From the NCBI RefSeq assembly GCF_024502345.1, contig NZ_JALDNN010000001.1: 64,000 nucleotides of DNA; one strand, written 5' to 3'. The position numbers and the translations under genes were made by a program. Source of the stretch: Escherichia coli (GTDB lineage: Bacteria; Pseudomonadota; Gammaproteobacteria; Enterobacterales; Enterobacteriaceae). Position 1 is the first letter of the stretch. The number at the start of each line of letters is the position of its first letter. The notes under the pieces are model-generated. The model searched no databases. It saw only the letters and a list, made by a program, of their open reading frames with translations, and was not told the origin of the DNA. Positions 29,960 to 35,287 of the stretch are shown one piece after another.

Positions 29960-30550
29960 TTATAGTGCATCTACCATATCCCGTACCTGAGATAATAACG
30001 ACTGATAATAGCTCGCGTGAAGTTCTTCCCCATCGAATACCACTGTATTACACAAGAAAGTGACATCGGCATCTTCAATACCAAGATAACTACACATATT
30101 TTTTAAATAATCGCTTATATTTTTTTCCCAGCCCATCTGGACAAATGATTCTTTGTCTCCTCCAACCAGCGCCACCCAACGAACTTTATTGAATGGTAAT
30201 TTGTGCCCATCTCCATAAGCCAGCCCATTATTCCATACTCTGTCAATATATCCTTTTAGCATTGCCGGGAAGCTGTACCACCAGAGAGGAAAAACCACCA
30301 CTAACGTGTCATGCTCAAGCAGCTCTGAATAAAGCTGATGAACCTCTGGAGAATAACGTTTATCCATATTCTTCCAGTCTGGTTCATCTTCCGACGTCAT
30401 CACCGGGTTGAAATTACGCCGATATAAATCGAGTTCCGTCACCTGTATTTTCCGCTCCATTGCCCGCTGATGGATTGCATCAGCAATATGTGCGGTCAAT
30501 GAATCATGACGAGGATGGGCCCATACCAAATAAATACGTTCAGACTGCAT
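29960..30550 (-). CDS. ycaK: Flavodoxin-like NAD(P)H-dependent oxidoreductase YcaK
   Basis: ORF track, 196 aa, MQSERIYLVWAHPRHDSLTAHIADAI... AT-rich with rare codons (see findings). Confidence 0.8.
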   Translation of the reverse strand: MQSERIYLVWAHPRHDSLTAHIADAIHQRAMERKIQVTELDLYRRNFNPVMTSEDEPDWKNMDKRYSPEVHQLYSELLEHDTLVVVFPLWWYSFPAMLKGYIDRVWNNGLAYGDGHKLPFNKVRWVALVGGDKESFVQMGWEKNISDYLKNMCSYLGIEDADVTFLCNTVVFDGEELHASYYQSLLSQVRDMVDAL

Positions 30551-30629
30551 AATTTTACCTCCACGTTAAGTTCTGGAGCGCACTTTACGCAGGCGGCATA
30601 ATCCTGTAAACGTGATGATTCAGGATGAG

Positions 30630-30650
30630 TTAATGAAGGATTTTCACTAA
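30630..30650. promoter_or_regulatory. Candidate LysR-type operator dyad in the ycaK-ycaN divergent intergenic region
   Basis: TTAATGAA-ggatt-TTCACTAA: imperfect 8-bp inverted repeat (one mismatch), 21 bp overall, abutting the ycaN start codon. Confidence 0.3.
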
Positions 30651-31558
30651 TGCGGATGAATATGTCTGACTTTGCCACTTTCTTTGCTGTGGCCCGTAAT
30701 CAAAGCTTTCGTGCAGCGGGCGATGAGTTAGGCTTATCCTCGTCCGCCATTAGCCATAGTATTAAAACACTGGAACAACGTCTTAAAATTCGCTTATTCA
30801 ATCGGACAACCCGAAGCGTATCGTTAACGGAAGCGGGTGCTAATCTCTATGAACGATTGCGCCCAGCTTTCGACGAAATTCAGATCATGTTAGATGAGAT
30901 GAATGATTTTCGTCTGACACCAACAGGAACGCTCAAAATCAATGCCGCCCGGGTAGCTGCACGTATATTTTTAATGCCTTTACTGGTTGGTTTCACACGT
31001 GAATATCCTGATATTAAAGTCGAGCTCACAACTGACGACTCTCTTGTCGATATCGTCCAGCAGGGCTTTGACGCTGGCGTTCGACTTAGTGGCATCGTCG
31101 AAAAAGATATGATCAGCGTGGCGATCGGCCCGCCAGTGAAATTATGTGTAGCAGCAACGCCAGAGTACTTTGCAAGATATGGCAAACCCCGCCATCCTCA
31201 TGATCTGCTTAATCATCAATGTGTTGTTTTTCGTTATCCCAGCGGCAAACCTTTCCACTGGCAATTTGCAAAGGAGCTGGAAATTGCTGTCGCAGGAAAT
31301 ATCATTCTGGATGATGTTGATGCTGAACTGGAGGCCGTTTTGATGGGTGCTGGTATCGGGTATCTGCTCTATGAACAGATCAAGGAGTACCTTGATACTG
31401 GTCGTTTAGAATGTGTACTGGAAGACTGGAGCACAGAGCGTCCAGGCTTCCAGATCTATTATCCAAACCGCCAGTATATGTCCTGCGGCTTGCGCGCATT
31501 TCTCGATTATGTAAAAACGGGTCAGATCTGCCAGAGTCAGTGTCACCGACCACAATAA
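30650..31558 (+). CDS. ycaN: LysR-type transcriptional regulator YcaN
   Basis: ORF track, 302 aa; N-terminal helix-turn-helix (FATFFAVARNQSFRAAGDELGLSSSAISHSIKTLEQRL). Divergent from ycaK. Confidence 0.85.
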   Translation: MRMNMSDFATFFAVARNQSFRAAGDELGLSSSAISHSIKTLEQRLKIRLFNRTTRSVSLTEAGANLYERLRPAFDEIQIMLDEMNDFRLTPTGTLKINAARVAARIFLMPLLVGFTREYPDIKVELTTDDSLVDIVQQGFDAGVRLSGIVEKDMISVAIGPPVKLCVAATPEYFARYGKPRHPHDLLNHQCVVFRYPSGKPFHWQFAKELEIAVAGNIILDDVDAELEAVLMGAGIGYLLYEQIKEYLDTGRLECVLEDWSTERPGFQIYYPNRQYMSCGLRAFLDYVKTGQICQSQCHRPQ

Positions 31559-33188: not shown

Positions 33189-33198
33189 TTGAATTCAT

Positions 33199-34347
33199 TT
33201 ACACGTGAGCAACGGGTTTCGGCGTATGACCGGCGTTGCGCAGCAGCATCAGCAAATAGATAAACGATACGCTGGCGATCATGATAAACAATAAATTATC
33301 GGAGAAATTCTGCATTAGCATAGCGGTAAATGACGGGCCAAGCAGACTTCCCACAGTATAGCTCAACAGTAAGGCCTGGTTCATCGCCACCAGTTGATGA
33401 TGTTCAACTTTCTCGCAAGCCCATGCCATCGCCACCGGATATAGCGTAAAGCCAGCGGCACCGAGGATGAATAACGCTGGGGCCATCGCCGCCTGGCTAA
33501 GCATCGCGATACTGCCGAGAATGACGACAAAGACCTGAACACGCAACACCAGCAGTCGACCAAACTTATCCGCCAGACGTCCAATCGGCCATTGTCCAAG
33601 GATACCCGCACTGACCAGTACCGCCATCCAGAAACCAATGCTGGCATTGCTCACCCCTTTGTGATTGAGGTACAGCGGCATCAGGCCATATAGAGATCCC
33701 AGAACGATTCCTGAGATAATGCAGCCATTCACGCCAAGCCGCGCCTGACGGAGTTTTAGCATTGACGTAATTGACGTCGAATCATGGTTTTCAGCCTGCT
33801 GATTCAGCACACGCGTAAACAACAGCGGTAAGATCCCTGCCAACGTCAAACCTGTAACCCACGGCAATACGGACATCAGCTCGGTTGAAACTTTGCTGAC
33901 CAGTAACTGGCCTAAAAACGTTCCCACGTAATAAACCATCATATACGCAGCAAGCAAACGCCCACGGTTACGTGACGTCCCACTGCACATCAGCGCGCTC
34001 TCAACAACCACCCAAATCATGGCACAGCCGACGCCCGCGACAAAACGCCAAGCCAACCAGCTCCAGAATCCAATCATCAGGCCAAGGCCGGCACAGCCAG
34101 CGGCAAAAATGAAGGAGGCCAGATAATAGCTGCGGTTAAAGCCAATGCGCTTAATGACATACCCTGTCAGCAATGTACCGACAAGGTTGCCGGTAAAATA
34201 GGATGAGCTGACAACGCCTACCTGCCATGTGGACATGTGTTCCTGGGCGAGCCAAAGCGGCACGAGTGTATTTAACACCGCAATCGCCAGAGTCAACAAA
34301 AGCAGGCCAGACAGCAAAAGCATGACAGGCCGGGTATACGTGGACAT
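33199..34347 (-). CDS. ycaD: MFS transporter YcaD
   Basis: ORF track, 382 aa, [27 protein letters not shown]..., multi-span hydrophobic. Confidence 0.85.
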
Positions 34348-34660
34348 GAATTAAAACCGTGAGGAAGTTCAAATTTCATGCGCATCATGCCACCGCCAAA
34401 AACATTGTCAATGGGTGAAAATACGCGATATCCCAGCGGCGGTATTATCGATTTATATTACTCATTCATAACGCTAATGCTGAAGAGATGATTAGTCTCA
34501 TCTGATTGTTTTTATTGAACTAACACAAATTTCATACGCTTCGTTCAGTCGAAAAATTTCATGGTCACAGCAAACTCATATTTCCCGTCTATGCTTTCAG
34601 AGCAATGCATCGCGTCTGATCGATTTCAGACGTACCACTGACTCTCGAAAGGAGAAGAGG

Positions 34661-35287
34661 ATGACCAAACCGTATGTTCGTCTTGATAAAAATGATGCTG
34701 CCGTTTTGCTTGTTGATCACCAGGCTGGTTTACTTTCCCTTGTACGGGATATCGAACCCGATAAGTTTAAAAATAACGTGCTGGCGCTGGGTGACCTGGC
34801 TAAGTATTTCAACTTACCAACTATTCTTACCACCAGTTTTGAAACCGGTCCTAACGGCCCATTAGTTCCAGAACTGAAAGCACAATTCCCCGATGCACCT
34901 TACATTGCTCGCCCGGGAAATATTAACGCCTGGGATAACGAAGATTTTGTAAAAGCAGTCAAAGCGACAGGTAAAAAACAGTTAATTATTGCCGGTGTGG
35001 TAACCGAAGTTTGCGTGGCATTCCCGGCGCTTTCAGCCATTGAAGAAGGGTTTGACGTCTTTGTCGTGACTGACGCGTCAGGGACCTTTAATGAAATTAC
35101 CCGGCATTCGGCATGGGATCGCATGTCGCAAGCTGGTGCGCAATTGATGACATGGTTCGGCGTGGCGTGCGAGCTGCATCGCGACTGGCGTAATGATATT
35201 GAAGGACTGGCGACGTTGTTCTCTAACCACATTCCTGATTATCGTAATTTGATGACCAGTTATGACACGTTAACGAAGCAGAAATAA
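34661..35287 (+). CDS. ycaC: Isochorismatase-family cysteine hydrolase YcaC
   Basis: ORF track, 208 aa, MTKPYVRLDKNDAAVLLVDHQAGL.... Confidence 0.85.
   Translation: MTKPYVRLDKNDAAVLLVDHQAGLLSLVRDIEPDKFKNNVLALGDLAKYFNLPTILTTSFETGPNGPLVPELKAQFPDAPYIARPGNINAWDNEDFVKAVKATGKKQLIIAGVVTEVCVAFPALSAIEEGFDVFVVTDASGTFNEITRHSAWDRMSQAGAQLMTWFGVACELHRDWRNDIEGLATLFSNHIPDYRNLMTSYDTLTKQK

Follow-up and report, generated by a model that had tools for sequence, protein, structure and literature searches.

A conserved ycaN-ycaK pair in a probably composite gene neighbourhood between pflA and dmsC of Escherichia coli

We analyzed a stretch of 64,000 nucleotides (nt) of Escherichia coli DNA (contig NZ_JALDNN010000001.1 of RefSeq assembly GCF_024502345.1; hereafter the window), focusing on five contiguous genes, ycaK, ycaN, ycaM, ycaD, and ycaC, which lie at 29960-35287 between the pfl and dms operons. 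A first reading of this sequence, hereafter the original prediction, had regarded the five genes as a possible module for the import, modification, and regulation of a small molecule. We find that ycaN and ycaK, which encode a LysR-type regulator and an NAD(P)H oxidoreductase, are the sole conserved and genuine unit among the five. The part of the proposed module that pairs a regulator with a modifying enzyme is thus retained, but the linkage data do not support a single module of five genes. We consider it likely that the locus is a composite of an old backbone and of genes gained and lost independently, with ycaN-ycaK as its only functional unit. The anatomy of the locus, the patterns of presence and absence of its genes, the conserved pairing, and the conserved box between ycaK and ycaN are taken here as established.

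The pairing is visible in the genomic contexts of YcaK homologues. We looked up seven of them in alpha-, beta-, and gammaproteobacteria (Hafnia, Pseudocitrobacter, Pantoea, Gilliamella, Pseudomonas, Burkholderia gladioli, and Chelativorans), and all seven have a full-length and divergent YcaN orthologue upstream. One more case, locus L057, came from the scan of ycaD loci described below. The YcaN orthologues of the seven contexts are 44-79% identical, and the identities of the regulator and of the enzyme drop together with distance. The spacer between the two genes measures 98-101 base pairs (bp) in five gammaproteobacteria and 134-146 bp in Chelativorans and B. gladioli. The other neighbours differ in every context except that of Pseudocitrobacter, where the pair fills the same slot between ycaD and pflA. 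No YcaM- or YcaC-like gene was found beside the YcaK and YcaN homologues in any of the seven contexts, and ycaD adjoins them only where the pair fills this slot. In our opinion, ycaN-ycaK is best studied as a pair.

The gene ycaK (29960-30550, minus strand, GC content 42.6%) is an accessory gene encoding a Flavodoxin_2 / NQO1-KefF-family NAD(P)H oxidoreductase of 196 amino acids (aa). The protein passes the NCBIfam model NF007280 (NAD(P)H oxidoreductase) with 353.5 bits for a cut-off of 162, and its homologues carry the domains PF02525 and PF03358. Its relatives in PDB are quinone reductases of the NQO1/NQO2 type, with E-values from 1e-14 to 1e-8, and also the KefC-KefF fusion 3eyw. YcaK scores under the models of KefF (59 bits vs 210) and KefG (51 bits vs 240), i.e., it is a member of neither family, and no kef gene adjoins ycaK at the locus or in the seven contexts of its homologues. 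YcaK proteins are 98% identical within E. coli, with a sharp drop to at most 68% outside the species and a patchy distribution. The protein has been included in libraries of candidate nitro- and chromate reductases (PMC3596305). Many clusters of E. coli YcaK proteins in the protein database are truncated, e.g., at 149 aa (443 members), 187 aa (337), and 131 aa (163), which may be caused by frequent pseudogenization or merely by the ends of contigs. The other partner, ycaN (30650-31558, plus strand, 302 aa, GC 46.8%), is also an accessory gene. YcaN aligns over its full length with many models of LysR-type transcription regulators, and its orthologues have the typical architecture of an HTH_1 and a substrate-binding domain (PF00126 and PF03466). 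It passed none of the curated LysR equivalogs (YafC, AaeR, GcvA, DsdC, and others), the best score being obtained with YafC (160 bits vs 470).

The two genes diverge from a control region of 99 bp (30551-30649). This region contains a dyad of the form T-N11-A, TGAAAATCCTTCA (30634-30646, minus strand), which is a putative YcaN box, and a ycaK promoter predicted by a promoter scan (minus strand, -35 TTTACA at 30610-30605 and -10 TAAAGT at 30587-30582). An alignment of nine genomes shows conservation of the dyad as well as of the two promoter blocks at -35 and -10. The dyad is kept in the enteric genomes, and in Pseudomonas the two half-sites are altered symmetrically, from TGAA/TTCA to TGAG/CTCA. 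Its centre is about 65 nt upstream of the predicted transcription start of ycaK, and it overlaps the Shine-Dalgarno sequence of ycaN (AAGGA). When we searched the 64-kb window for copies of the box with up to three mismatches, the only exact copy was the one between ycaK and ycaN, the number of copies was that expected by chance, and none was in the ycaD-ycaC intergenic region. A putative YcaN operator is now defined and can be tested.

From this arrangement, we infer that YcaN would bind the dyad in the 99-bp region, where, overlapping the ribosome-binding site of ycaN, it would repress its own gene, and that ligand-bound YcaN would activate ycaK. The ligand would most plausibly be quinone-like or another redox-active electrophile, because the nearest solved relatives of YcaK are quinone reductases of the NQO1/NQO2 type, and the YcaK flavoprotein would reduce the same compound with NAD(P)H. 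In other words, ycaN-ycaK may be an uncharacterized but widespread pair of a sensor and a detoxifier with a conserved operator, a proposal that we make tentatively and regard as possible rather than probable. If it is true, identifying the inducer of the pair would reveal a new response to electrophiles or quinones. We hold equally tentatively a second possibility that concerns ycaM, whose absence could be a lineage-specific determinant of the response to polymyxins (see below).

The distribution of the five genes within the species was obtained with segment-specific searches in 5,426 complete genomes of E. coli. We found ycaK-ycaN in 3,314 genomes (61%), ycaM in 4,358 (80%), and ycaD-ycaC in 5,422 (99.9%), and a segment missing at the locus was also missing elsewhere in the same genome. 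The five-gene arrangement is present in 61% of the complete genomes and absent from 39%, and around 1,044 genomes have ycaM without ycaK-ycaN. There are three haplotypes with defined breakpoints: the full five-gene one, an O157-type, and a sequence type 131 (ST131) type. The O157-type deletion (29935-31445) takes away ycaK and most of ycaN, keeping a 111-bp remnant of the 3' end of ycaN that is annotated as a pseudogene. The ST131-type deletion (29921-33148) takes away ycaK, ycaN, and ycaM; it begins just 3' of the pflA terminator and stops just short of the ycaD terminator, and the two terminators are left back to back, about 10 nt apart. The Escherichia lineages lacking ycaK-ycaN retain 100-155 bp of the 3' end of ycaN and, in some cases, a few bases of ycaK. 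The remnants, which were seen in O157, in E. albertii, and in three further lineages of Escherichia, have four different pairs of breakpoints. They suggest that the ancestor of the genus probably had the pair, which was then lost more than once. Regulatory conclusions drawn in K-12 on the action of YcaN on ycaC and ycaD are inapplicable to the 39% of E. coli without ycaN, including O157 and ST131.

For the comparison between genera, we scanned one genome per species for YcaD and mapped the resulting 80 Enterobacteriaceae loci by tblastn. Five of these loci are from Escherichia: the GTDB representative of E. coli, E. albertii, and three other lineages of the genus. The gene order serS-dmsABC-ycaD-pflA-pflB is conserved across the 80 species. 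The gene ycaC adjoins ycaD in 17 loci (Escherichia, some Citrobacter and Salmonella, Intestinirhabdus, and Entomohabitans), ycaM is found in 23, and ycaK-ycaN in a single one (L057), which is not among the five of Escherichia. All five genes together were found in none of the 80 loci. Conserved linkage outside E. coli had been named beforehand as a check of the original prediction, and such linkage is largely lacking. The loci of Salmonella and Citrobacter that have ycaM show no trace of ycaN. In 21 of 72 loci, ycaD and pflA are separated by an empty gap of only 44-190 bp. The cargo of this gap in other loci includes a CigR-family gene (13 loci), a PA3715-family gene (9 loci), a cassette of phosphotransferase system IIA/IIC genes, a split transketolase, and an RpiR regulator (7 loci), a different LysR gene that is sometimes accompanied by a choloylglycine-hydrolase-like gene, and an adhesin of 1,075 aa. 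The variable genes have a lower GC content (ycaK 0.43, ycaN 0.47, ycaM 0.48, and ycaC 0.46) than the backbone, which ranges from 0.50 to 0.55 (ycaD 0.52, pflA 0.50, and dmsABC 0.52-0.55).

The composite that we propose would thus consist of an ancient backbone of the Enterobacteriaceae, serS-dmsABC-ycaD-pflA-pflB, in which ycaD has its own sigma-70 promoter and a strong terminator, and of four genes of lower GC content that would have been inserted in two intergenic slots, one on either side of ycaD. The slot between dmsC and ycaD would have received ycaC; the one between the ycaD and pflA terminators would have received ycaM and ycaK-ycaN. The gains and losses of each insertion would have been independent, among genera as well as inside E. 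coli, with ycaM and ycaC behaving as separate single-gene units. Elsewhere in the scanned loci, we observed a tandem of two dmsABC operons upstream of ycaD in Kluyvera cryocrescens and in a related Enterobacteriaceae genome (L047, 793-8718, and L076, 1813-9736), where the DmsA of the second copy shares only 65% identity with that of E. coli.

The contexts of ycaC in other bacteria differ from the one in E. coli. The gene (34661-35287, plus strand, 208 aa, GC 46.4%) belongs to the core genome of E. coli and is patchy between genera. It encodes an isochorismatase-family cysteine hydrolase that passes NF041461 (408 bits vs 310), matches PDB 1YAC from E. coli over its full length (E-value 2e-139), and has the catalytic residues Asp19, Arg84, and Cys118. 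YcaC is 88-90% identical to homologues from Marinobacter, Brucella, Pigmentiphaga, Herminiimonas, and Pseudomonas, i.e., across alpha-, beta-, and gammaproteobacteria. Such conservation, which has already been reported (PMC4519933), is extreme for a non-universal gene. We looked up four contexts of ycaC elsewhere (Marinobacter, Brucella, Pigmentiphaga, and Pseudomonas citronellolis). A LysR gene lies beside ycaC in all of them and is divergent from the gene run containing ycaC in three, a pirin accompanies ycaC in three, and a second isochorismatase in two. In Marinobacter, genes for an ABM-domain protein and for an FMN reductase are also part of the cluster. No YcaD-like transporter gene adjoins ycaC in these four contexts. 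The ycaC-linked LysR genes were considered as possible YcaN orthologues and rejected: they are only 25-27% identical to YcaN in the four cases, and the three that were scanned are of the PRK14997 type. Elsewhere, ycaC is part of a different cluster, in which a LysR gene, a pirin, and a second isochorismatase are its companions; functionally, it would belong with these clusters of other Proteobacteria. The YcaC of Citrobacter koseri (L009, 8277-8903) is only 68% identical to that of E. coli, the other Citrobacter copies being 93-99% identical, which suggests that a copy of different origin may occupy the same site.

Several points weigh against our reading of the locus. The conservation of the box could partly reflect a translation signal, given its overlap with the Shine-Dalgarno sequence of ycaN, rather than an operator. 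RNA sequencing (RNA-seq) of a ycaN deletion in K-12 found lower expression of ycaC and higher expression of ycaD and focA, within a set of 702 differentially expressed genes (PMC9068703), and the authors of that study concluded that YcaN regulates the adjacent y-genes; functional wiring between ycaN and ycaC or ycaD is conceivable. In the dataset on which that study relies, obtained by chromatin immunoprecipitation with exonuclease digestion (ChIP-exo) in glucose M9, YcaN has six weak peaks, with signal-to-noise ratios of 1.06-4.45, at cspE, ynjB, yobF, ung, rho, and yihQ (PMC8464067, Dataset S4). None of the six is in this neighbourhood, and the ycaK-ycaN intergenic region, where our reading places the operator, has no peak. 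This absence may mean that the regulator needs an inducer or that it is poorly expressed. Two of the peaks, at yihQ and ynjB (K-12 positions 4066582 and 1834142), recur for many unrelated regulators in the same dataset and look like technical artefacts, which weakens the six reported YcaN sites.

The RNA-seq result also speaks for the view that the five genes are one small-molecule module, in which YcaM and YcaD would import, YcaK and YcaC would modify, and YcaN would regulate. Also in its favour are the physical contiguity of the genes and the assignment of Nac to ycaK, ycaC, and ycaD in predictions derived from EcoCyc (PMC10100675). We nevertheless regard this module as quite improbable and as largely refuted by the linkage data, since none of the 80 species loci has the full set and 39% of E. 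coli lack it, while ycaD-ycaC stays universal in the species. The number of differentially expressed genes in the ycaN deletion suggests indirect effects, and the lack of YcaN ChIP-exo peaks in the region counts against the module as well. The ycaD-ycaC intergenic region has no match to the YcaN box and hardly differs between E. coli strains that have ycaN and those that do not, and YcaC pairs elsewhere with the other type of LysR regulator. In other work, ycaC has been treated as monocistronic and induced via the YdeO-GadE cascade, its listed regulators being BaeR, Fnr, and Nac. We sought gene-level fold changes for these genes in the supplementary files of PMC9068703, and the accessible part of these files does not mention them; a search of the iModulon literature gave nothing beyond this same study. 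The evidence for co-regulation of the five genes is weak. A half-site-like sequence near the ycaD promoter, GTGAAAATACGCG, was also considered as evidence for YcaN and rejected, as E. coli has it whether or not ycaN is present and it is unconserved beyond the species.

The ST131-type deletion removes ycaK, ycaN, and ycaM together and runs exactly from one terminator to the other. This deletion and the abutting ends of ycaN and ycaM, whose transcripts overlap, might suggest that these three genes belong together. Yet ycaM occurs without ycaK-ycaN in the 1,044 or so E. coli genomes mentioned above and in each of the 23 species loci where it was found, and YcaK-YcaN occurs without ycaM in 8/8 contexts outside Escherichia (the seven looked up and L057), which makes such a grouping highly improbable. 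We give almost no credence to the idea that YcaK is a KefF-like ancillary subunit gating YcaM or YcaD, as KefF activates KefC. The weak similarity of YcaK to KefF, KefG, and the KefC-KefF fusion 3eyw, as well as the two transporter genes nearby, would be in line with it. However, the scores of 59 and 51 bits are far under the cut-offs of 210 and 240, no transporter gene is conserved beside the YcaK homologues, and the family matches of YcaM (an APC transporter of the GadC/YjeM type) and of YcaD are unrelated to KefC. Hence, we favour the composite of backbone and independent genes, with ycaN-ycaK as its pair.

All five open reading frames (ORFs) were found where the original prediction had placed them, in the order ycaK, ycaN, ycaM, ycaD, and ycaC on strands -, +, -, -, and +, and flanked by pflA and dmsC. 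The names and flanks are the same in the RefSeq annotation of an E. coli chromosome that is 99.4% identical, and the family assignments of the original prediction agree with NCBIfam. The region is a mosaic: the ycaK-ycaN segment is 100% identical to that of one complete-genome strain and the ycaD-ycaC segment to that of another, and the best complete-genome match is only 99.4% identical for ycaM and 99.4% for the whole 7.5 kb (29000-36500). It had been proposed that the five genes form a neighbourhood and not a proven operon, and we agree, as they are distributed over at least five transcription units on alternating strands. A single operon implies co-transcription of genes on the same strand without internal terminators, and here ycaD and ycaM are set apart by a strong terminator and a separate promoter.

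The signals for transcription are in line with separate units. Strong hairpin terminators are found 3' of pflA, ycaD, and ycaC/dmsC. The intrinsic terminator of pflA (29888-29917, plus strand, a 13-bp stem followed by a T-run) is the left edge of the variable slot, and that of ycaD (33155-33190, minus strand, a 14-bp stem and a T-run) is its right edge and divides ycaD from ycaM. A bidirectional hairpin at 35293-35314 is common to ycaC and dmsC. The original prediction gave every gene a terminator or promoter of its own; the hairpins 3' of ycaD and of ycaC/dmsC agree with this, but the statement needs correction for other genes. The stop codons of ycaN (31556-31558) and ycaM (31559-31561) abut with no intergenic base. 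Hence, there is no room for a terminator between the two genes, and either transcript must end within the other gene. The pair ycaM-ycaN has been listed as a convergent excludon in a survey of RNA-seq data (PMC12288877). A hidden ycaM terminator, sought inside the retained 3' remnant of ycaN, was not found (the fold is not significant, with a z-score of -1.9, and there is no T-run). No terminator was detected on the strand of ycaK either; the sole hairpin 3' of this gene is the pflA terminator, which was scored on the plus strand only. A search of 29000-36500 against Rfam gave zero matches at E <= 0.1.

The backbone gene ycaD (33199-34347, minus strand, 382 aa, GC 52.1%) encodes a transporter of the major facilitator superfamily (MFS). 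The protein passes the MFS equivalog NF002962 (730 bits vs 361) and is 80-100% identical in the 80 Enterobacteriaceae species, where the gene is nearly always between dmsC (or serS) and pflA. The ycaD-ycaC divergent control region (34348-34660) includes the ycaD promoter, TTGACA-16-CATGAT (34411-34384, minus strand). The promoter and the 5' untranslated region (UTR) of ycaD (34348-34415, minus strand) are almost invariant across the 80 species and more conserved than the coding sequence. The promoter reads TTGACA-16-TGGCATGAT and is followed by CUUCCUCACGG about 15 nt before the AUG, with no obvious Shine-Dalgarno sequence. A search for a structured RNA in this 5' UTR with RNAalifold gave no covarying pairs. 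In short, ycaD is a core transporter gene with a remarkably conserved promoter. A published site for FliA, identified by chromatin immunoprecipitation, TATGCTAATGCAGAATTTCTCCGATAAT, lies at about 33270-33300, inside the 3' end of ycaD and upstream of ycaM; its expression was reported to be very low (PMC4183435), and transcripts starting there would need readthrough of the ycaD terminator.

By comparison, ycaM (31559-32989, minus strand, 476 aa, GC 47.6%) is an accessory gene and a strain-variable permease in the amino acid-polyamine-organocation (APC) superfamily, related to GadC and YjeM. YcaM scores under the equivalog cut-offs of both families (YjeM 161 bits vs 400; GadC 102 bits vs 640) and belongs to neither; its similarity to PDB 4DJI (E-value 3e-14) is at the level of the superfamily only. 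The ORF called mechanically extends to 33181, and the start giving 476 aa agrees with the ORFs of 472-477 aa in most other species. A predicted sigma-70 promoter of ycaM (33080-33109, minus strand), TTAAAA-18-TATAAT, is a match to the consensus only. The deletion of ycaM has been reported to raise the half-maximal inhibitory concentration of colistin 6- to 20-fold (2025 preprint, 10.1101/2025.07.07.662571). If this link is true, the natural absence of ycaM in about 20% of the complete E. coli genomes, including that of an ST131 strain, could be a lineage-specific determinant of the response to polymyxins, and the lineages naturally lacking ycaM are a ready test of it.

As a whole, the region is ordinary and already annotated, and such a region is unsurprising for an enterobacterial chromosome; a run of five uncharacterized y-genes is statistically unremarkable in E. 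coli. Variable intergenic slots between core genes, or hot spots of integration and plasticity, are a general concept for enterobacterial chromosomes. The locus resembles them in having the same core flanks, ycaD and pflA, around at least seven unrelated types of cargo or nothing, depending on the genus, and in its nested insertion/deletion haplotypes within E. coli. It differs from them in that the E. coli slot has no integrase, tRNA, or insertion sequence (IS) element, in the small size of the cargo (0.5-7 kb), and in being bounded by two terminator hairpins and not by repeats of an attachment site. The abutting stops of ycaN and ycaM, with no space for a terminator, resemble those of a convergent excludon, in agreement with the listing of the pair in PMC12288877. 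YcaC resembles the cysteine hydrolase of PDB 1YAC and the Pseudomonas aeruginosa YcaC (4WGF/4WH0) by its full-length match to 1YAC and its Asp19, Arg84, and Cys118. In the other bacteria looked up, ycaC goes with a LysR gene of the PRK14997 type and often also with a pirin and a second isochorismatase, whereas the E. coli gene is an orphan beside ycaD. YcaK is alike NQO1/NQO2, KefF/KefG, and the Flavodoxin_2 quinone oxidoreductases of the MdaB type in its family model, Pfam domains, and nearest structures, but it differs from KefF and KefG, scoring under both cut-offs. In the classical architecture of LysR-type transcriptional regulators, a T-N11-A recognition site near -65 goes together with autorepression and a divergent target gene. 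YcaN departs from it in having no ChIP-exo peak here in glucose M9 and in belonging to no curated equivalog. It resembles it in the divergence of ycaN and ycaK, 99 bp apart, in the T-N11-A dyad about 65 nt upstream and overlapping the 5' end of ycaN, and in a pairing of regulator and enzyme that is conserved across alpha-, beta-, and gammaproteobacteria.

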